Shown: in pieces, positions 9,373 through 64,000 of the stretch | How positions within the stretch are numbered: the first letter of the stretch is position 1 | Layout of the letters: each line of letters starts with the position of its first letter | Assembly: GCA_965113315.1 (NCBI GenBank) | Contig: OZ220368.1 | DNA from: Podarcis vaucheri | Lineage: Eukaryota | Strand: one strand, 5' to 3' | DNA length: 64,000 bases | Notes under the pieces: generated by a model | The model's database searches: none | Told to the model about the DNA's origin: nothing | The model's input: only the letters and a program-made list of their open reading frames with translations | Translations under genes and position numbers: made by a program

Positions 9373-10364
9373 TAGGGGTTTGGGCTAAAAGATTCCTGCA
9401 TTGCACGAGTTTGGACTAGATGTCCCTTGTGGTACCTTCCGACTCTACAATTCTATGATTCTTTAGTGCTGCAGTAATGTTACTTTTGCTCAATAGGGTG
9501 AAAACAGAATTCCATCTGTGGGTCCACACATCCCCTAAGAAGTGTGCAACTTCACAGCAGTCTCATAATTTTGCAGCACCATGGCAAGGCTAAAGTTGCT
9601 GCTCCCTTACTGAGTAGCAAAGGGAGATTTTAAACTTCTTTACACAGAAGTGAGTCCTATTCTGTTTTCTAAGGACCATTCAGAATTGCAGCCTTCACTC
9701 AGTGAAGAGTTTTCCTTTGTGGATTAAAGCAGCTCCTGCTTTTCTGCAACAGAATATCCTTGGAATTAAATAGTGAACATGTGTAATGCATCAAAGCTGC
9801 TTCTAGAAGCAAATATTACTCTACTGTATTGACCACTGCTGTAGAACAGAAGAGCCCACTATCACTGCTACCTGTATGAATGATTTAGATCATGCTTAGA
9901 TCTCTGCTGCAAGGTAACTAAAACCAATGATAATGGTGATGGAGGTGGTGGTGCTGATGGTGGTGCTGATGATGATAAAGAATTTTACATAAAGAATACT
10001 GTCAAAAAGTTTTTTAAATCAACATAACCAAAAATCCACAAATTATCAAACAAAATCCCCAAAACCCAGGTTAACCATGTCTCAAGATTCTTGACTATAT
10101 CATGTTTCTGTGTGACAATTAATATAATAAAGAATTAATAGCAAGGGGAAAAGAAACACAGAAAACAAGGCATTAAATTCATCTGCTGTTATTTTTAAAC
10201 ACACTCCAAAGCCGTGCTGTATCTTCGTGAGGCACAGGATATTATAAAACATTTACCAAAGCAAAAAAACCGTTTTGGGAATCTATCTTACTTCTGTCCA
10301 GAAGGAATTAATGTTTGCTTTTTGTTGCTGTTGTGGCCTTAATGTGTGCTCTTAGTGTGCACTA

Positions 10365-19957: not shown

Positions 19958-20319
19958 AAAAGGTAAAAAGGTAAAGGAACCCTGGATGGTTAAGTCTAGT
20001 CAAAGGCGACTATGGGGTGTGGCACTCATGTTCGCTTTTCAGGCCAGGAGAGCTGGCGTTTGTCCACAGACAGCTTTCTGGGTCACGTGGCCAGCATGAC
20101 TAAACTGCTTCTGGTGCAACAGGACACCGTGTTGAGTGCCAGAGTGCAGGGAAACACCGTTTACCATCCTGCCGCAGTGGTACCTATTTATCTACTCGCA
20201 TTGGTATGCTTTCAAACTGCTAGGTTGGCAGAAGCTGGGACAGAGCAACGGGAGCTCACCCCGTCACACTGATTCGAACCACCGACCTTCCGATTGGCAA
20301 GCCCAAGAGGCTCAGTGGT
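19958..20319 (-). mobile_element. Sauria-type SINE, 5' end eroded
   Basis: (ACCTTT)n-like tail, body similar to 36063-36426, B box remnant gattcgaacc near 20271. Confidence 0.85.
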
Positions 20320-21840
20320 AAAACATTTCAGTTCAATCTTATGCTTCCTCTTTGGTAACCAGTGTAACCATAATACTGACATTTATGGAAACATTAATAA
20401 ATTTTATTGTTTAAATATTGCAGCATGTTTTTATTCAGTAATTTTGCATCATAGGAAACAGGGATGTTTGTCCCTCCAACCTAACTTCCACCCAGCAAAT
20501 GCTCAGAAAGCCACACCCATAATTTTAAACCAGTTTTGATGAAAGAGGGAGAGAAAGTAACAGAAGCAGCATTTTCTGGAAATACCCCTCACTATTTGAC
20601 TCCAGTGTACCAACCCTCTGCCTTTTGCCTTCACTGGAACTGTATCTGCCATCACAACCAGTCATAGAAAATGCCACCCTGCCTCTTCCTCTGCAGCCTA
20701 ATCTCCTCCTCTACTGTACATCTGCTTGGTGGAAGATGGGGAGATTAAAGGAAGCTGGACAGGAGTGGCTGCCAGGAAGCAGAGGTAGGGGCAAGCAATG
20801 TGTTCTGGAGACATCTTCATGGTTTCAGTCCATTTCTGATACCCAAACCCCTGAATCATGACTCCTGAACTCCATATCTGCTGCTGAGCCTGTACTGTCA
20901 CTTGCCCTGAACAAATATCCCTTTCTGACTTACACCTAAGAGCCTCTTTCTGCATGTGTTAGGTGGGAATCAGGACACCTTCCCCACATGGCAGTGCTTG
21001 TCTTTCAAAACCTCCTAACATACCAAAACAAGTGAGGTTTCCTCAATCTCTGTTTCCCCAACTTCTCAACCAGAACACTCCTTTCAGCTGTCTTCTTTTC
21101 TACTATTCAAAGGTGGTTCCCCTTGGTTCCAAAAAGCTGGAAACTGCAAATTTCAGTCTATACACACTTTGGCAACAGTGCTCTTTATTTAAATTGGTTG
21201 GGAAGGAGGTGATAGGGCAAGAGAATGGCCTACCAAGGACTCCTATGTAATATCCCAGTCCTTAAGATTATTTAGTCATTGTGTGGAGTGTGGTGGTGAT
21301 GAGGGCCAGAGACTGCCTTTGGGGCTTTCAAACGTCAGATCAGGTCCCTGTTTAACACTATGGTTACTTCATACACATTTGTAATCCTTATAAGTACTCT
21401 GTACGGAAGGCCAGTATTTTACCTTTCCAATACTGCAGACAGAGCTTCAAACTGACAGCCAAAGTTGATGTGACAGATGGATGCAGTGTGTTTAAACCCA
21501 AATCTATCCTGGTTACATAGAAAGAAAATGATGGAGGGATCTAATGCCAACAGGAATATGGATGCACAGGTGAGGAGTACATGCACACCTCCATTTGCCC
21601 CCTCTCATGAAGCATCTTTTATCCAAGGTCAGTTCTACAGTCAGAACCTCAATGAGGACAGGTGTGCAGATGATATAAAATATTCAGTGTTGTTGGTTCC
21701 CCCCTCCCAAAAAGAGATATTGTGAGGAGCTCCACAATGATCTCTCCAAAGTGAGTGAATGAGCAATAAAATGGCAAATGCGATGCAACGTAACCAAGTG
21801 CATAAAATTATACATGGCATGAAGAAAGTGGATACAGAAA

Positions 21841-35500: not shown

Positions 35501-36062
35501 ATAATAAATATTTTGTCCTTTAAGAGGGGAAAGGTATGGAAGACAAGTTAGATGTTGCAAAGCAAATAGCATCATTCACATTTTATGGTGCATGAGCATG
35601 GTGCTCTGTCTAAGCAGCAGAACTGAAACATTCTCTGAATGGGTTAATAAAAGCAGGAAAAGAGCTTGCATGCAAGTAGAAAAGTTCTAGGAACAAGCCA
35701 AAATAAACCTAGTTTTTTCTAAAATGATCACAGCCACATGACATTATTCTTAAGACAGCAAAGATTGTCAGTATTTGCAATTAAAAAATAAACTTAAAAC
35801 TAAAATGCTAGTTTAGCACATCTTATGCTAATGTTCCTGATATCATGTGGTATCTGACTAATACGCAGAGTAAACTGAATGGAATCAATGGACATAACTT
35901 AGTCTTGACTAACTTAAGTCCATTTTATCCAATGGACTCTGACTATGACTAAGTCAGGTAACTCCCACAGCCTGCATATTTCTGAGAATATCCTCTTTCA
36001 TTTAGTTATAGTGGCAATTTATAAATGTACTTGAGTTCCTGTACTAGTCTACATCAAATTAA

Positions 36063-36426
36063 AGGTAAAGGTAAAGGTACCCCTGCCCGAACGGGCCAGT
36101 CTTGACAGACTCTGGGGTTTGTGCGCCCATCTCACATCTATAGGCCGGGGGCCAGCGCTGTCCGGAGACACTTCCGGGTCACGTGGCCAGCGTGACAAAG
36201 CTGCATCTGGCGAGCCAGCGCAGCACACGGAACGCCGTTTACCTTCCCGCTGGTAAGCGGTACCTATTTATCTACTTGCACCCGGGGGTGCTTTCAAACT
36301 GCTAGGTTGGCAGGCACTGGGACCGAGCGACGGGAGCGCACCCCTCCGCGGGGATTCGAACCGCCGACCTTTCGATCGGCAAGCCCTAGGCGCTGAGGCT
36401 TTTACCCACAGCGCCACCCGCGTCCC
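36063..36426 (-). mobile_element. Full-length young Sauria-type SINE
   Basis: A box TGGCGCTGTGGG (36405-36416), B box GGTTCGAATCC (36352-36362), (ACCTTT)n tail, perfect 11-bp TSD catcaaattaa (36052-36062 and 36427-36437), CpGs retained. Confidence 0.93.
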
Positions 36427-37054
36427 CATCAAATTAAGCATCCATTATTCTTTGGGATGCATATTGCAGTGGCAACTACAGGGCATTGGATTCACAAATG
36501 GATTAGCATTGTTTGGAGGCGGCTACATGCCTTTGCAACTCATCTAGTCCTGAAGCATATGGGGGCACCAGAATATTAGCTCAATGGGCACCCAATGGTT
36601 TTCTTGTAAAGCAATCTAATGGTACAACCCATGCCTACAGTGCTTTAATGTAACAATTTAAGAAGAGTACATATGAATGTTAAAGCACTTTCAGCCACTT
36701 ACAGTGTTCTAACTGCCCTAGTGTGAAGGTACCTTAGGAGCATTTGGACTCCCATGGTTTTATCTTCTGTCAATATTTAGTGGTAGAAGTAATGGGAAAC
36801 ACACTTCACTAATGTAAAATGAAAGTTATGTGTTTTTAAAACAAATTCAACAGCTGGAACTTTGGGTTGCTGTGTTTTTTAATTCTGCTTTTTCATTGAA
36901 ATGCACAACAATTTGTCAATATCAGTTCTCACTTGATCTAAATTAAACTAGCTATGTTTCTCAGGCTCACAATGGCAATAAAAAGAACAAAATAATTTTA
37001 TTTCAAGAAAACAATGCGTTCCTTACTCTATTTTTAGTTAATAGTTTAAATATA

Positions 37055-37121
37055 AAAGGTAAGGTAAAGGTACCCCTGCCCGAACGGGCCAGTCTTGACA
37101 GACTGTGGGGTTTGTGCGCCC
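37055..37121 (-). mobile_element. 5'-truncated Sauria-type SINE (3' 67 bp only)
   Basis: Nearly identical to 36061-36128 (one substitution and one indel in the tail). Lies inside a 14-bp direct repeat. Confidence 0.9.
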
Positions 37122-37258
37122 AAATTGATATGTGTACACCCATCAAGATCAGTATTGTCTAAATTTTCTTTTTATTGTATACTATAGTTTAAATATAGTA
37201 TACAATAAAAAGAAAATTTAGACAATACTGATCTTGATGGGTGTACACATATCAATTT
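37122..37258. repeat. Perfect inverted repeat, 65-bp arms, 7-nt spacer
   Basis: 37122-37186 is the exact reverse complement of 37194-37258, read base by base. Confidence 0.95.
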
Positions 37259-38203
37259 TGTATTACTATAAGTTGGAGCAATTTTTCCAAATTAAAGCTG
37301 TCTAAATTTTCATTCATGTGTCATTTTCCTAAGTATAAAGCTATTTTGTTCATTCCAACTCATGCATGTCATGTCCATCCACCAAATGCACAAATGCAAG
37401 CAAAAATGGAATCATAGGTTAGTGGAGTCATGGAATAGATGATGAAGTCTCCCAGGAAGGCCTTTCAGAATTCTGCAGTTCGCAAACCTCCAACCCAACT
37501 TAGTAGTGTGGGTGCAGGAATATTTCATATTCATCGTCTTCTATGGATCAGTAGAGCAGCACAATAGTTTAAAATCCTGAACCTTCTTGTATTCGCTAGT
37601 CAGGAAATATCAATGCTTCCTATTACATAATAGGAAAAGATCCATGGGCATTCTCCAAATACGGTAAATGACAGAAAGCTGTATATTAATTCTGTTCACA
37701 ATATCTGTCTGCTCAGTGGATACCTTTACACATTTTCCCAAGCTGAAGAACAGTTCTGCTAAGGGTAAATCATCCATCACTACCAAAAATGACAACGTCA
37801 CAATTTCTATTCTCTTCCCAAAAGTAATACAAAGATTGGGGGTGGGGGGTGAAATTCAGTGTACTTCTAGATGCTAAATCCAGTGTCACTCTAGAACTAT
37901 TATTTTTATCATTTATTAAATTTCTATACCACCCTTTATCCAAAGATCACAGGGAAGTGTACAATATAAAAACACAAAAATGCATACCATAATAACAACC
38001 AAAAACAACACCTCTCCGGTTTAAAATGCCATAGATTGATTAATTAACCACCTCAGAATACCTTTCTAATCATGATACAGCACAGTTCCATGTTTGCTAT
38101 ATGAATGAAAGTTACTGACTACTCATGTCAACATAAATAAGGGTATTGATAGGTCTATCAACAGGAGAAATATATGCAAGAGATGAAGGCATGTAGCCTA
38201 AAC

Positions 38204-38492: not shown

Positions 38493-40407
38493 GCCTCTAT
38501 ACTATATCAATTATAGAGGGGCTCTCTAAACAAGAAAACCTATCTGCACGAGAAAAATGGAATGCCGTAAAAGAAAGAACAAAATAAAAATAAATTTCAA
38601 AAACAATGCCATATGCTAACATAAAGTTAATTTAATTATTAGTTAAGCAAAATCTATCAATTATGAGGTGGGCCTTACTGGCATAAGATAGGTGTGATTG
38701 TTAGAAAATTTTTAACAGATGTCTGTCCAGCTTCTGCTTGAATGTGCATATGAATCAGCAATAGAAAGTTGCGTGGAGGATTGTTTTGACCCATACATTC
38801 TTGGGCTCTTAACTTATTACTTTTATCTACCATATTAACATTACAATAACCATTGTGCAATGAAAGTTAAAAATAGTAACCAAACCTATTACACCATTTA
38901 TTCAACTATACACATCAACCAAAATGTTGAACCTTCTTTTTCTTTCTTAAAACACCTAATCTATTTACCGGGCTCTAACAGCGGTTAACAACTATCTCAG
39001 CACCCAACTGATGCCACTATGCATGATAACTGAATTCATCATAATCATTATTTTAAGAAACATAAAGTTGAATAATTAAAACATGCAAATGGCATATAAA
39101 AGAGAAATTAAATGGTTTTCTAGTTCTCTTAAAAAAACACCTGGGCATGTTAGCAGCTTCCTTTTGGAGCAGCTACTGAAACACCTTTTCAAGAAGCATC
39201 AGCATTCTTACTAGCCTTCTCCCCCACCGTTCCTGGGTATTACTACAAAACATGAAATGTCTTTCATTCATTCATTGAGAGCTTCTCCTCCTGCATTTAC
39301 AACCATTTTGCTTCATTTTTATTAAAGCTAAACAATCTAAGGTTGGTGGAACCTTCTGTACCCCTCCCCCTCACATACCCCCATCTAATTTTATGTCATT
39401 AACATTTTCTTCAGATGCTATAGTACCACAACACTTTGTGCCATTATATTTTACAGTTCCTTTTCCTCAGATGTCTTACTGTTAAATTTCTGGGTGTCTC
39501 CCAAAGCCATTTCTGCAACCATGATTGTACTCTACTGGATAGATTACATACAGCAGTAAGAACAAATCATGGCTATTCAGAATACACTGGTTTATGGAAG
39601 CCTTGCAGGTGGAAAATACAATGACAGGCAAATGATACAATCATAAATTCAAACACCAAGTCTTTGCCTATTATTGCAGCTGAGGCATGAAACTTTTGGA
39701 AATCAGTGATCAAAAATAGGCTTATGTTTCAGCCACATCCTCACAAGATGCAAATGGAGTGTAAACTGCAAGTGAATGAAAGGATTTGAATATGATTCTC
39801 TTCTCTATTATTTCAGATACTGAACTTTTAGAGGATTAAAAATGTTGCAACAATTTCTGCTATACTAATAAGGACAGATAACCTAAACAAATTCAAGTTT
39901 ATTTAGAACTACAGCTTTCATTATAGCAACATTTTAAACACATTTTACTTTAGCAAGGAGTCTAGGATAAAAACATCTGGAGAATTTGTTGTTATGTGAA
40001 GCTATTTAATATACATTTTGATTAATGAATGTGTTATATCTCAACAGGATTAAACATAAATCATAATTGTTCAAAATTAATCTTATCAGCACAGAGATGC
40101 ACTGTCGGTTGACATGATTTACCAATACTCTTGAGGAATGGAGAAAAGGGAACCAGAAAAAAGAGCAAGTTAGGAGAGAACTACCCAACTGAATCTGCAT
40201 TAATCCAGGAACCACAAACATGACTGAATTCCTTACTCCATTTGCATAGTTTTCGTATTGACTGACTACACAATCAATAGTTCTGTTATGATGCCAGATC
40301 ACAAATGGACACATAACTTCTAGTTGTCCCCTTCCTTTCACCATACTCTCTGAAACCACTTATTGGAAACAACTCTGTGTTGCCTTACTTTAATCCTTTC
40401 CCTAGTA

Positions 40408-40633
40408 CAGTGATACCTCGGGTTACATACACTTCAGGTTACAGACTCCGCTAACCCAGAAATAGTACCTTGCGTTAAGAACTTTGCTTCAGGATGAGAA
40501 CAGAAATCGTGCAGTGATGGTGCGGCAGCAGTGAGAGGCCCCATCAGCTAAAGTGGTGCTTCAGGTTAAGAACAGTTTCAGGTTAAGTACGGACCTCCGG
40601 AACAAATTAAGTACTTAACCCGAGGTACTACTG
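40408..40633 (+). mobile_element. Tigger-like Tc1/mariner MITE, copy 1 (226 bp)
   Basis: TIRs cagtgatacctcgggtta / taacccgaggtactactg, TA TSD, same family as 52126 and 61975. Strand is relative. Confidence 0.9.
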
Positions 40634-41211
40634 TACCATTTTTTCAAATGAAAGTAGCACTGCCCCCTCCATTAAATCCTTCCCTTTTCAGCACTGTGAT
40701 TCTGATCTGAACCTTACCTAGGTGGCCATAAGACAACAAGATTCTAAGTTAGTATAAAAGGGGTTGGGAAGTTTCTCTATTTTCAGATAGCGCCTGAAAA
40801 TAGTGCTTAGGCGATCGTGTTTCCTAGGTTCCCAACTGCAAGGACTACTGTACCCAAGACCTTCTGAAGTATTGCTCCTTGATCTACCACTTCCCCCTTT
40901 CGAACAGTGTGCGTTAAGCCACATCAGGTACAGTAACTTCATCCCAAAAGGTGCACTCCTCCATTGTCTCCTAAGACAGATGGACGGCAACAAGTGTGCC
41001 TTCTAGCTTGCAAAATTCTTGCCTTGCACACCTCTCTGACTGCTCATGGTTCTGTCCCTATATAGTTTGAGTAGTTTGCTCTTCCTGCTTGCAGCCTTGA
41101 TCTATTACTTCTGCTCATTCTTGCATCCCCCCAGATAATTTTGCCGTGGCTTGTCCTGAGCCACCTGTCCTGTTCATTTGGAATGGTTTTGACTCCCGTC
41201 TCTCCCTAGAA

Positions 41212-45208: not shown

Positions 45209-45488
45209 TTCTACTGAACTGGAGCTGTTGCAAGTATGCTTCCATTTAATTTCTTTTCTAATGTCAGTTTCCTGGCTACTTAATCATCCTGGAACCCAGA
45301 TTCTTCCTGATCCCCTTCTGAGAAGACAAACTTTACAGCACATGATACGTAATACACTGGATTGTGCAAGGGACCAATTGTAGCATTATTATGGCTGCTA
45401 TCTTTGACTCCAAGCCCACAAATCTGCCCCAATCCAGCTGTAAAGAAATCTATGATTGGGGGGGGGATACATCTCTTTCTGGATCATG

Positions 45489-45840
45489 TAAAGGTAAAGG
45501 GATGCCTGACCATTAGGTCCAGTCGTGACCGACTCTGGGGCTCCGGTGCTCATCTCGCTTTATTGGCCGAGGGAGCCGGCATACAGCTTCCGGGTCATGT
45601 GGCCAGCATGACTAAGCCACTTCTGGCAAACCAGAGCAGTGCACGGAAACGCTGTTTACCTTCCCGCTGGAGTGGTACCTATTTATCTACATGAACTTTG
45701 ACGTGCTTTCAAACTGCTAGGTTGGCAGGAGCTGGGACCAAACAACAGGAGCTCACCCCGTTGCGGGGATTCGAACTGTCGACCTTCTGATCGGCAAGTC
45801 CTAGGCTCTGTGGTTTAACCCACAGCGCCACCCGCATCCC
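45489..45840 (-). mobile_element. Full-length Sauria-type SINE (different subfamily from 36063)
   Basis: A and B box remnants, ACCTTT tail, degenerate 12-bp TSD ttctggatcatg / ttctgaatcgtg. Confidence 0.9.
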
Positions 45841-45989: not shown

Positions 45990-46213
45990 ACATTCAAGTT
46001 ACAGAAAAGGAGATTCTGACTAAACATCAGGAAGAAATTTCTGACAGTTAAAAGCTGTTTGGCAGTGGAACAGACGCTTTTGGAAGAAGGTAGACTCTCC
46101 TTCCTTGGAGGTTTTTAAGCAGAGGATGGAAAGCCATCTGTCATGGATGCTTTAGTTGCAGGGGGTTGGAGTAGATGATCCTCAGGATCCCTTCCAACTC
46201 TACAATTCTATGA
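45990..46213 (+). mobile_element. CR1 LINE 3' fragment
   Basis: ctaaacatcaggaagaaatttctgacag...cccttccaactctacaattctatga is a typical CR1 3' terminus. Confidence 0.8.
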
Positions 46214-52125: not shown

Positions 52126-52367
52126 CAGTGGTACCTCAGGTTACATACGCTTCAGGTTACAGACGCTTCATGTTACAGACTCCGCTAACCCAGAAATAGT
52201 ACCTCGGGTTAAGAACTTTGCTTCAGGATGAGAACAGAAATTGAGCTCCGGCAGTGCGGCGGCAGCAGGAGGCCCCATTAGCTAAAGTGGTGCTTCAGGT
52301 TAAGAACAGTTTCAGGTTAAGAATGGACCTCCGGAACGAATTAAGTTCTTAACCCAAGGTACCACTG
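52126..52367 (+). mobile_element. Tigger-like MITE, copy 2 (242 bp, one extra 16-bp subterminal unit)
   Basis: TIRs cagtggtacctc / aggtaccactg with TA TSD. Confidence 0.9.
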
Positions 52368-53675
52368 TATAGTATTCCTTCCTATTCTTCTAAACAACAG
52401 TGCTCTTCCTTAAGCCCAACCACTCATCCTTACATTCCCTCCATCTTTTACTATTAACACATTATTATTATTTTTATTACTACTACTACTAGTAATACTT
52501 TGAATTACCCGCCCTTCACCCCATGTTTTCAGAGAGGGTAACAGCAATTTAAGAACTTAGACCTTGCCACAATACATGGCAAGATCTAAGTTCTTTAGTT
52601 CTCTCCGTATTGTTGGCCTAAGAGTTTGCAACTGCTTCATGAGAATGGAGCAGCACCAGAAGTGATAATGGGATCACCAATATTTGTGAGTCCATTGGCA
52701 CATTTACAAACAGCAGAAACTGTTGTGGACACCACATACACACACCACAATCAAGAACACAATGCTACCTAGCCTATTGGCTACAACAGAATACTTCTCC
52801 TGAGTCTAAATTCAGTTGGGGAGGGGACTCTGCGGGCACAAAGGAAGGCCTCTTTGGCTGCACATGCACCCATGGATACCATATTAGCAAGCCCTGGTTT
52901 AATACAATGGACTGCTTTGACAAGTATTTATTAGAATGACTGTCTTTTAGCTTGCTTGCTCACAAATTCAAAATCAACATATTTATTTCAGAATTGTGTG
53001 CAAATTAGAAATAACAATAACAAAAGAATCACTTAGATCAAAAATCAAGGGGCCTTTTGTCCATAAGCTGCAATTATACTTTAAAAAGTAATAATATAAT
53101 TTTCTTTAAGAGGCAAAAGATTTTGTGACAAGTGGTAAGATATTTATGTAGCAGGAGACACCAGAAAAGTTAAGCCAAAAGGATGACTTGAAAAGTAACT
53201 AACAAATCCAGAAGTGGAACAACAGTATCAATGGTATGTAGAAAGACTTCATTCAAACTTTCCAACATTTAAATCGACAAAACAACCTCTCCTGCAATGC
53301 CATTAAAAAGCCATTACAGAATAAAATCAATTCACGTTAACAATAGTTTGAAAGGGTCTCCCACCTGTCATTTTACAACATAATATAAATTGCAGGATGC
53401 CACTCTTTGGGGGCAAGCCAACCTAATTCTCAGTAATATTTTGGAATAAAGAAGCCTTGAGAGTCACGGAAACCATAATGCAACACTACAAATGCTTGCC
53501 TAAAATACTGGAATGAATATTATCAAAATATTTACAGCTGCAGAAGCACTCAACTTCTGTAATCTAACACACACTACCTCATACATTAAATCTGAAATGC
53601 AGTCTAATAATTTTTAAATAAATACATACATGGAAGATAGCTTTGAAATCCTAAAAAGCCACCTGAGTGACTCTA

Positions 53676-54023
<348 letters not shown>

Positions 54024-58780: not shown

Positions 58781-58930
58781 CTGAGGGATAGCTCAGTTAG
58801 TAGAGCATAAGACTTCTAATTTTAGGACTGTGGGTTCGAGAGCCATATTGGGTGAAAGATTCCTGTATTGCAGGAGGTCGGACTAGATGACCCTAGTGGT
58901 ATCTTCCAACTCTACAAGTCTGTGATTCTA
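58781..58930 (+). mobile_element. tRNA(Lys-like)-derived SINE with CR1-like 3' tail
   Basis: A box tagctcagttagtag, B box-like gggttcgagagcc, tail ggactagatgaccc...ttccaactctacaagtctgtgattct. Confidence 0.75.
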
Positions 58931-59002: not shown

Positions 59003-59150
59003 NNNNNNNNNNNNNNNNNNNNNNNNNNNNNNNNNNNNNNNNNNNNNNNNNNNNNNNNNNNNNNNNNNNNNNNNNNNNNNNNNNNNNNNNNNNNNNNNNN
59101 NNNNNNNNNNNNNNNNNNNNNNNNNNNNNNNNNNNNNNNNNNNNNNNNNN
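59003..59150. other. Assembly gap (148 N)
   Basis: Run of N. Confidence 1.
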
Positions 59151-59241: not shown

Positions 59242-59312
59242 AACAAACAAACAAACAAACAAACAAACAAACAAACAAACAAACCAACCAACCAACCAAC
59301 AAACAAACAAAC
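59242..59312. repeat. Compound (AAAC)n/(AACC)n microsatellite, likely a retroposon tail
   Basis: Tandem units directly after a LINE/SINE-like 3' end (ggtataa). Confidence 0.9.
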
Positions 59313-59948: not shown

Positions 59949-60066
59949 CTGGTAGAGGAAGTGCTTGGTAGGGATCTCCTCATTGCTCCTGGGCTCATGC
60001 TATAGTATGAGGAACTTTCCAAATCTGAGAGTGAGAAATTAGGCCCTGTTCCGGCAGCTATCGGTG
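59949..60066 (-). CDS. NFIA: NFIA coding exon (equivalent to mammalian exon 5), 118 nt
   Basis: Encodes [38 protein letters not shown], recognised as NFIA. Acceptor TTTTCCCAG|, donor AG|GTAATT, phase 1 to 2. Confidence 0.96.
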
Positions 60067-61974
60067 CTGGGAAAACAAAGGGAAGTAAGTAAGTAAGTGA
60101 TGTGGAAAAGGAAGAATTACATTTCAAACATTCACTTTCACCTTAATGACCTACCAGCATGTAGGTAGTAAGGTATGAGTTAATTGGCACTGTAATCAGC
60201 AAGATTAAAAGTTCATTATGCAACTTTATGATTAAGGTCTTCTTTGAAGGTCTTTTACTGATGGCAAAGTCTGATTTTGTACCATCATGTATTTCAATGG
60301 CTTCAGAAACTGTAGGAATGCTTCTTCTTCTTATATCTGTTTCCTCATGTCTGGCATTACTGAGCACCTTAGCAATGTTCTCCCAAGCATTTCTCAGTGT
60401 TTGCTGTCCTGTGCACATGATAAGGTCTTCCTTTGTTACATTTTTCTCTTGACTTTTACAAATGTGTGTAATGAGCTAGTTTTTCACAAAGATATTACGA
60501 AGTCCTTTCTCTGCAGTGTTAAAAACAGAAGGTCATGAATCTCTTGCCATCAATAATATGGATCTGGTATCATCCACATAAGAAGTTGCTAAAGGCCTTT
60601 CTAGAGATTTTTTTATTACGCAATAAATATGCAGCTGTTACTTGGTTGTTGAGGGGGATCCAAAGCCTTCTCTCACCTGTTGTAGAGAAACAGCATCCCC
60701 CCAACACTTAAACAACAATTATTATTTTTTTGCTGCCATTATATGAACAGCTAGTGCAATAGTGAAACTGTAGAATCCTGTAATCCTGAACTCAGACTAG
60801 AATGAAGGGGAAGACACACTTCAATCTTGACATGAGTTCGGGATAACAGGCAGAGAGGCAGCAGCTTCATCCTCTGCAATTCAGCAACTGCCTCCATTGC
60901 TAGGAGGAATCACCAGGCAATCCCCAGCCAGGCAATAAACAGACAAGGCCAGGATGCGCCAGCTGGTGTTACCACAGTTCACCCTCAACAGTAACTTTAT
61001 GTATATTTTCTGTGCCAGTTATGGATTGATCTGGGAGAAAAACAGACAGCTCCTCTCCTCCCTTTCCAGGGGCTCCAGGAGTCCGTTAACTGCTTCATGA
61101 CATCCTGTGGCATAAAATCAGAGCCATTCCCAAGAATTTATTACATGACAGCAGACCACATATCAGTTTTCAAAGTGTTATTTTATTTAAATCTCCATTT
61201 CCTCCAGGAGTTAAAAGCAATGTGTGCAATCTCCCCGTTTTTATCTTCGCTACCAGTGAGTTAGGTTAGGGTAAGATGCAATGATTGGCTCAAGCCCATC
61301 AAGTCACCAATGGGTGTGAGTGTGTGCCATATACTTGTTTACCCAGCGTGCAAAATGTCTTGGGCCACTGAACGGAGGCAAGTCATGTTGGGTGGAATAG
61401 CCAAACCATAGTTAGGGCATTAGATCTAAGCCAGATTCCCAATTCTGGTTTCAAGGGCAAGTGGAAACTATAGTTTGCTAATTTGGATCTAACAATGACC
61501 TAAGGTCTGCCAAACAAGGAAATCAGGGTTTGAATCAGGTGGAGGAAGCATGCAAGCCTAAGAATAGCCAAACCAATGGTTTGACACTGTGTATGAAGCA
61601 ACTCATTGCCTGCATAAATGATTTGCATATGTGAAATATCAATGTACTACAGTTCTCATACATCTAATACATTCAGCAAGTGGTAAGCAATCAAGGTTGA
61701 TTTACATGTTCCTTTAGCGTGTCCATGGCCAACAAGGGCCGTCTCTGTAGCTAATTGAGAAGAACTGGTTGGAGGACTGTCTTTAGCATATGCACCACTG
61801 GCGTGCAAAGATCCGCCTAGCGCCCCCAAATTTAGTTTAGTCGTTCCCAATTTTTTTAGGGGCGGTGAACTCAAAGTTGTTGAACTTTTTCTGGGAGTGG
61901 GAAAGCCAAAGTTGTTGACTTTTGGGGGGTGGGGAGGAAAATTGCTCACCTGTAACAATGACACAGCGGAAATA

Positions 61975-62200
61975 CAGTGGTACCTCGAGTTAAGTACTTA
62001 ATTCATTCTGGAGGTCCATTCTTAACCTGAAACTTTTCTTAACCTGAAGCACCACTTTAGCTAATGGGGCCTCCTGCTGCCGCTGCACCGCCGGAACACG
62101 ATTTCTGTTCTCATCCTGAAGCAAAGTTCTTAACCTGAGGCACTATTTTTGGGTTAGCAGAGTCTGTAACCTGAAGCGTATGTAACCCGAGGTACCACTG
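61975..62200 (-). mobile_element. Tigger-like MITE, copy 3 (226 bp), inverted relative to copies 1 and 2
   Basis: Internal sequence is the reverse complement of 40408-40633. TIRs and TA TSD present. Confidence 0.9.
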
Positions 62201-64000
62201 TAACTGCTTTTGTTTCCTTACTCATTGGGAATATTTGACACTACGGAGTAACAGAGCAAAGGGTGGGGGGACTTTCTCTCCATTGCTTTTCACTACCGCC
62301 GATCAAGAGGGACAGTAGGTATACACTTGGTGCCCCCCCAGAGTACATTTGGTGCCCCCCAGAATCCGGTGCCTGGGTGCCCCACACCTCTTGCACCCCT
62401 GGGTAAAGACGGCCCTGACGGGTTGCCTCCTGTACAACTGTGACCGGGGCAGGAAACCTGGTGTCCTGTCGATGTTCTGAACCTCAATTCCCATCATCCC
62501 TGCTGAATGGCCACATGGGCTGGGCTGATGGGAGTTACAGAACAGTATAGTTGGAGGACATCAGGTTGCCAACCACCGCCTCTGTGCAATGCCACTTTAG
62601 CTGCATATGCACAAATGTCTGTTTTCAGTGCTAGGATTAAAGTGGTGCTATAAACATAACATTGCCTTATAGCAAGTCCATCCAGCCCAGTTGACAGTGT
62701 TTACTGGCAGAGGCTTTCTGGGGTCTTGGGCAGAGGTGCTTTCCAGCATTTATCAACTGAGAGCTTTCCACATGTAGAGTATGCAATATGCTAAACTGCA
62801 ATCTTCAGCTGAGGAGCAACTATGTACTTAGTGTTTTACAGACTGCAGCTGAAGTACAAGAATAATGGGCAATACAAAGAACAAAATCCTCACACAGCTT
62901 ACTTATATAGTTCTCATGTAAACTATGGCGTACTCTCAGCCGTGGTTTAAGGACAGCCACTGAACTGAGATGCATTGATAGCAATGCATTTTTAAAAGCA
63001 CAGGATGGAAGGAGTGCAATGATATTAAAATGGGAGCCAGCCTTTAATGATCTTTGGAAGAAATTAACTTGGGAAATAATTTACAAGAATACTCTAGACT
63101 CATTTGCTGTCTTCCTTTAACTACAATATGCTTCCTGTGCAACGGGTGAATGAAACTTTAAAAAAAACCCAACCATTGTAAAATTAACTCATTTTATCAA
63201 TTTGTGCTGTCTGCTAGAGTTTCCTGACAGCAGAGACAAGAGGCTGTAAAACTGATGAATTTGCATGGAAAAAGAAACCAGTGTAAGTAATTTGTGTAAA
63301 AGGTAACACGGACATGGACTGCTATAATTCAGACACCCTGCGGATAGCAAACTGCTGCAGTGTGAGCAGTTATGGGTTAGAAAAATGACCACACTGCAGT
63401 CAGTCTGACTTGAATGGAAATCAATCATAAAGGTACACTCTGCAGCATCCACTCTACAGTTTTAGCAGTCTTGGCCAAACTTATTTCTGCTTTTAAAAGC
63501 CTTTGCTTGATAAATTTTCATTCACACAAGACCTATGGAAGTCCAAACTGAAAGGTTAATAATGTCCTTTCGAAGCAGGTACATAGAAATCTTGCTCCCA
63601 AGCCACTATAATATTTATTAAACAGGATTATTGAAGACAGAAAATGTGTGGAGGGGGGAATGATACACAGCCCAAGTCTATGCATGTGTACTCAGAAGTA
63701 AGTCCTACTATATTCCTATGGTATTACTTTATTAATTTACTCCAATCAGCATCTGTTTCTCTGTGTTCTCATTTTACTAGGCTTAGCTCTCTTAAATCTA
63801 ATTGTTCCTCATGAAGAAAATACTTTTGGAGATATGCAGATATCAAGGGAGGCAGGCGGAGAAATAGGTCTGCATGAACTTAGCCGAATACAATGTGAGA
63901 AAGAGTAAGGACATGATAGGGAATAGCAACTCATGCTATAGGTAGTATTTGTATTTGTTACTTTACTAAATTTATGACAATTATATTTGTATCCAACCTT

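Follow-up and report, generated by a model that had tools for sequence, protein, structure and literature searches.

Architecture of the palindrome and its surroundings

The window (the whole 64,000-nucleotide stretch of Podarcis vaucheri DNA analysed here) carries, in an intron of a CTF/NF-I gene, a short 3′ fragment of a Sauria-type SINE (the stub), which directly abuts an inverted copy of DNA flanking the insertion. The features on which the analysis depends are listed below, with the strand where one is assigned.

37041–37054, no strand assigned: TSD copy at the SINE 3′ end; exact 14-nt repeat
37055–37121, minus strand: last 67 nt (3′ end) of a Sauria/Squam1 SINE with an ACCTTT-type repeat end; 97% to 36061–36128
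37122–37183, no strand assigned: 62-nt templated insertion; exact reverse complement of 37197–37258
37184–37197, no strand assigned: TSD copy at the 5′ junction, supplying 3 stem base pairs and the 7-nt loop; exact repeat
37198–37258, no strand assigned: native 5′ flank, which forms the right arm and from which the inverted copy was templated; T run between −10 and −14
36063–36426, minus strand: full-length sister copy of the SINE, 364 nt, belonging to the same young subfamily and used to locate the truncation point
32482–53680, minus strand: 21.2-kb intron of the CTF/NF-I host gene, identified from Pfam and AG/GT borders

The two TSD copies are identical over 14 nt and the repeat stops there on both sides; a 129-nt insert (37055–37183) lies between them. 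Perfect arms of 65 bp (37122–37186 and 37194–37258; no mismatches) enclose a 7-nt loop (37187–37193). A preliminary description of the locus had given the same arms, loop, direct repeat and insert, and its figures are correct to the base. It had also described the insert as containing an exact inverted copy of the flank, which holds for 62 nt (62/62 identical to the reverse complement), whilst the final three base pairs of the stem, like the loop, belong to the second TSD copy itself; the newly inserted portion of the left arm is therefore only 62 nt (37122–37183). Its identification of the remaining 67 bp as a Sauria SINE 3′ end is borne out by the match to the full-length copy in the window and by the ACCTTT tail, and the stub length and the exact 14-nt repeat support its reading of a 5′-truncated copy with a true TSD.

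Since the SINE lies on the minus strand, as does the host gene, the copied DNA is the upstream (5′) flank of the element. In element-sense order, the locus reads flank, TSD, 62-nt inverted copy, SINE 3′ 67 nt, and TSD, with both the TSD and the 3′ tail of the element retained. The inverted copy, which comprises flank sequence plus one TSD base, has one end exactly at the SINE truncation point and the other exactly at the TSD edge; at the junction of the SINE and the arm, A37122 is common to both parents, i.e. a 1-nt microhomology. The arms contain 49 adenosines and have a GC content of 25%.

For perfect inverted repeats with loops of up to 30 nt, the runner-up in the 64-kb window has arms of 12 bp, and 200 shuffles of the region 36500–37800 gave a longest perfect inverted repeat of 14 bp. 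Exact 14-mer repeats within 500 bp occur at 82 of 63,239 window positions. The minus (transcribed) strand is predicted to fold at −125.9 kcal/mol (z −19.5; 0/200 shuffles as stable), as is trivially expected of any perfect inverted repeat. None of the 14 rows returned by Tandem Repeats Finder falls at the locus, and a composition check revealed nothing out of the ordinary. The native flank has a 16-nt imperfect inverted repeat (37209–37224 and 37299–37314; E 0.11) and a 22-nt imperfect palindrome (37234–37255; 118/921), each within chance.

Host gene and SINE family

The four minus-strand reading frames submitted to Pfam all score above cut-off for PF00859 (CTF_NFI). The host intron is flanked by AG/GT-bounded exons at 53808–53681 (128 nt; picked by eye from the splice-border output) and 32481–32353 (129 nt), and further AG/GT exons are present at 60066–59949 (118 nt), 14854–14676 (179 nt), 10655–10490 (166 nt) and 5236–5145 (92 nt). 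The palindrome lies approximately 4.6 kb from the intron acceptor, with the SINE in sense orientation to the gene. We take the exon sizes and peptides to fit NFIA exons 5–10, hence the labels NFIA and intron 6. Of the earlier assignment to ‘NFIA intron 6’, the placement in an NFI-family intron is supported by Pfam and the AG/GT borders, whereas the paralogue and the intron number are presumed.

The stub differs from the 3′ terminus of the full-length SINE, located approximately 0.6 kb away, by one substitution and one 1-nt indel in the tail (97% identity). The two copies are of the same subfamily and orientation, and share bases which differ from the Podarcis muralis copy used for comparison, a closely similar unlabelled sequence in the P. 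muralis flanks of the PMC13295347 supplement (compared by eye). The minus-strand end of the stub consists of three ACCTTT units, one of which lacks one base, and ACCTTT-type repeats are found at the minus-strand 3′ ends of all the Sauria-type copies in the window. An ACCTTT tail and a 3′ end shared with Bov-B LINEs are described for Sauria SINEs, together with TSDs that begin with T and a T run approximately 10 nt upstream (PMC13295347). The target site here fits the Sauria Tn-TA signature, with a TSD beginning TA and the T run at the position listed above. The sister copy has an exact 11-nt TSD (36052–36062 and 36427–36437) and lacks the upstream T run, so the T-run signature is not obligatory. 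Squam1 is the Sauria family under another name, represented in each lacertid genome by 65,094–130,894 copies (PMC10670947, Table 1), and many of its insertions are reported to be species-specific (PMC10670947).

Only the last 67 nt of the element are present in the stub; with the tRNA-derived 5′ head and its Pol III promoter missing, it is inactive and incapable of moving again. The tRNA-derived head of the sister copy was detected by neither ARAGORN, which returned 0 genes, nor Rfam. Older Sauria-type copies at 45488–45840 and 19959–20325 (minus strand) are 74–79% identical to the young copy, the one at approximately 45.5 kb having an apparent TSD with two mismatches (by eye). All four of the window's Sauria-type copies are on the minus strand, in sense to the host gene. 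The scar seen at the stub is found at none of the three others, whose longest stems within 150 nt of their 5′ ends are 7, 9 and 6 bp.

Other repeats in the window include three MITE-like copies (approximately 52126–52370, 61973–62231 and 40406–40635) of ~230–260 bp, which are 85–88% alike and have terminal inverted repeats flanked by TA; we presume a Tc1/mariner affinity for this element. At 58789–58929, a tRNA-like head (Rfam RF00005, 33.4 bits) is followed by a body that recurs as 3′ fragments at 9380–9462 and 46156–46213, indicating a second tRNA-derived SINE family, which we assume is possibly of Squam3/Ther1 type. An assembly gap of 148 N (59003–59150) lies near this tRNA-derived SINE and an AACA tandem array (59242–59312).

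Origin of the inverted copy

Because the inverted copy runs exactly from the truncation point to the TSD edge, it very probably arose during integration, whichever route was taken. Our preferred reading, to which we assign a probability of roughly 0.6, is a single germline retrotransposition that left a fold-back repair scar through self-priming of the target-site overhang. The Bov-B (RTE-clade) machinery, presumed to be the enzyme responsible, would nick the plus strand past the 14-nt target, and the plus-strand 3′ end of the TSD copy at 37041–37054 would, following the scheme of target-primed reverse transcription, act as the primer; to judge from the observed anatomy, only 67 nt of the SINE RNA would have been reverse-transcribed. 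Cleavage of the second strand 14 nt away, as the TSD implies, would leave a 14-nt minus-strand 3′ overhang on the upstream flank, corresponding to the TSD copy at 37184–37197, which we infer to be the sequence that folded back. The last three bases of this overhang could then pair with its bases 2–4 around a 7-nt loop, in the register that is observed, and a DNA polymerase (host or element-encoded) may have added 62 nt to it by copying its own strand; the end may instead have been closed into a hairpin and reopened at a distance of 62 nt, with an identical product. The extended end would unwind and join the cDNA 3′ end at the 1-nt microhomology, with the gaps subsequently filled, generating the order TSD, SINE stub, inverted flank copy, TSD, and flank.

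Of the ten registers in which the overhang 3′ end might pair with itself, register 2 alone reaches 3 bp, against 2 bp for the runner-up, and it is this register, with its 7-nt loop, that forms the observed turn. Extension from register 2 matches the insert at 62/62 positions, against 17–25/62 for the seven other registers tested; a perfect match is a consequence of the palindrome itself, and what is informative is that the best-pairing register and the one observed coincide. As background, equivalent near-nick pairing is available to 383/8,905 (4.3%) of the TA-starting 14-mers in the window and to 195/2,467 (7.9%) of the AT-rich ones; when any of registers 1–6 is allowed, the proportions are 11% and 18%, respectively. 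An isolated 3-bp stem is unstable (+2.1 kcal/mol) and would need a protein to hold the fold. The idea that synthesis was stopped by a small hairpin lying where the copied stretch ends found no support; the stability of this hairpin (−2.1 kcal/mol) is equalled by 118/921 GC-matched 30-mers.

The route proposed in the preliminary description, a template switch by the nascent cDNA about 60 nt past the nick, is the strongest alternative, though we consider it unlikely. On this view, the reverse transcriptase left the SINE RNA once 67 nt had been copied, resumed on the nicked plus strand at a point ~61 nt into the flank, and copied back to the nick, the product then being joined to the overhang. 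The turn lies within 1 nt of the first nick, the point this route predicts directly and at which run-off would end the copy; the position of the nick is itself ambiguous by 1 nt since the SINE tail ends in T. Related junctions have been read in this way: ‘snap-back’ junctions of R2 transgene insertions on nearby rDNA are interpreted as cDNA-primed (PMC11371274), a cDNA-switch model is cited for 22 L1 templated insertions of <250 bp at ≤15 bp from the site (10.1101/2024.08.27.596794), and extra nucleotides at ZfL2-2 5′ ends are often flank-derived (PMC4245944, PMC2666801). The switch nonetheless requires duplex DNA to be entered with 1 nt of homology, and a second, blunt join, and it makes the 3-bp pairing across the TSD a 4–8% coincidence. 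Overhang fold-back is favoured since it explains that pairing, involves one unprimed junction rather than two, and needs no entry into duplex DNA; with the mechanism judged from one locus, the likelihood ratio in its favour is, roughly, only 3–10. Of the preliminary proposal, the formation of an inverted copy at integration is supported, whereas the switch itself is less well supported, as it leaves the pairing to chance. The sequence which that description predicted for a putative empty allele is supported.

An origin in two steps, in which an ordinary SINE insertion later acquired the inverted copy, and possibly lost the 5′ part of the SINE, through template switching during replication, appears improbable. 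Short-range template switching is known to yield perfect hairpins (PMC10710096, PMC7954356), and the one substitution in the stub compared with none in the arms is compatible with younger arms, but the latter difference is not significant. Nor is there any reason for a later event to coincide, with single-base precision, with the SINE 5′ junction as well as with the TSD edge whilst leaving the TSD intact.

Slightly less probable again is a fold-back artefact of the library or assembly, which would account for the perfect identity of the arms in an assembly that has at least one gap. Against this, the only N run in the window is ~21–22 kb away, the 1-nt overlap at the junction of SINE and arm is too little for a graph mis-join, and beyond the palindrome normal flank resumes, with an intact TSD, the T-run signature, and a length within the known biological range. 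Two differences also separate the stub from the neighbouring SINE copy, so the stub is not a mis-assembled duplicate of it.

The least credible alternative, to which we attach very little weight, is that the SINE landed by chance beside a pre-existing palindrome or MITE; MITE-like elements do occur in the window and the flank contains weak internal inverted repeats, but the identity of the loop with a TSD copy would be a coincidence (of the order of the 82/63,239 positions given above), no other copy of the arm is found in the window above E 0.009, and in silico removal of the insert leaves a stem of ≤7 bp. The palindrome was rejected as a MITE in its own right, being single-copy in the window with no duplication outside the arms, and a twin-priming 5′ inversion was rejected because the inverted segment consists of host flank without any match to the SINE, rather than of sequence from the element RNA.

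Age, function and relation to known systems

No differences are present between the arms over 76 paired sites, giving a 95% upper bound on divergence of 3.9%, which corresponds to ~15 Myr at 0.0013 per site per Myr, the rate used in PMC13295347. If the substitution in the stub is counted as post-insertion, an age of 3.5 Myr (0.09–19.7) is obtained. Repair of one arm from the other could mask further age. Of the earlier view of the insertion as ‘very recent, possibly polymorphic’, the youth is accordingly retained, but great recency and polymorphism are no more than possible, given the age that 76 identical sites allow and a stub with one substitution.

The insertion is most likely a neutral intronic scar, with no evident effect on the host gene. 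A dsRNA stem of 65 bp and 25% GC should, from the folding model, form in the pre-mRNA; such a stem would be long enough for ADAR. The miRNA-like, ADAR-substrate and cruciform roles envisaged in the preliminary description are hypothetical. At gathering score, Rfam returned one hit in the window (58789–58846) and none at the palindrome. The inverted copy creates a new AATAAA on the transcript strand, to which we give no weight as a signal, since it is one of 24 in the intron and is buried in the stem. Within 37171–37185 (minus strand), this AATAAA is accompanied by a new TAG at the turn point, downstream of a pyrimidine run, both lying in the stem. The origin of de novo miRNA hairpins through template switching during replication has already been published (PMC10710096).

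The joining of the 5′ ends of non-LTR insertions is poorly resolved, and the few fold-back cases so far known are human L1 events in soma or culture. As a single locus, the present case is an anecdote; its value lies in the genome-wide question of whether the turn point is set by self-pairing of the overhang or by the nick. That fold-back scars are a regular outcome of Bov-B/Sauria retrotransposition in the squamate germline is a doubtful proposition. Were it true, an L1-like rate of 0.3–0.4% applied to 65,000–131,000 Squam1 copies would give a few hundred perfect hairpins per lacertid genome; these would form a fossil record from which overhang fold-back and cDNA switching could be told apart for an RTE-clade element, and would also supply intronic dsRNA in one step, part of which would be edited or diced, the locus here included.

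Relative to published accounts of Sauria/Squam1 (PMC13295347, PMC10670947), the locus has in common the ACCTTT tail, the TA-starting TSD, the upstream T run and a sister copy of ~360 nt; it differs in that only the last 67 nt are present, and in the fold-back of the flank, which is undescribed for the family in the portions of those two papers covered. In the passages covered of a study of Drosophila R1/R2 junctions (PMC2718515), no inverted case appears. The R2 snap-back junctions (PMC11371274) and the L1 templated insertions of a tumour long-read preprint (10.1101/2024.08.27.596794) share with our locus a short stretch of opposite-strand local sequence at the 5′ junction; those events, from engineered or tumour settings, are read as cDNA-primed, in R2 mostly on the cDNA itself.

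At double-strand breaks in yeast, fold-back, synthesis, unwinding and end-joining with 0–5 bp of microhomology are reported to yield inversions of 2 to ~150 bp (PMC11724301). The product is the same as here, as is the folding back of a 3′ end on inverted microhomology, but the yeast foldback inversions involve a 10-bp imperfect repeat, a 41-nt loop and resection, with no retroelement, in contrast to the 3 bp and 7-nt loop inside an unresected overhang proposed for our locus. Snap-back SD-MMEJ and Pol theta templated insertions likewise share the sequence of 3′ fold-back, extension, unwinding, and joining.

The closest parallel in architecture is somatic human L1, for which four cases (3 + 1; 0.3% and 0.1%) of 52–220 bp are described and the inverted flank duplicates are attributed to extra DNA synthesis (PMC10191854); in PMC11702581, inverted duplications are inferred from the processing of L1-made ends and from self-annealing of the reciprocal end, the latter step being set out in the legend to Fig. 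8. Common to those L1 cases and the present locus are a TSD-flanked non-LTR insertion and, at the 5′ junction, a duplication of the upstream flank in inverted orientation; the 62 nt found here fall within the L1 size range (PMC10191854). Here, by contrast, the element is a SINE moved by an RTE-clade LINE, in a lizard assembly and presumably in the germline. In the literature covered, which is incomplete, we found no report of a fold-back case for Bov-B/RTE-mobilised SINEs; the locus is a further case of a known, rare insertion scar, with no earlier report found in RTE-driven SINEs. This RTE-driven example suggests that an exposed 3′ overhang capable of priming on itself is an intermediate common across LINE clades.
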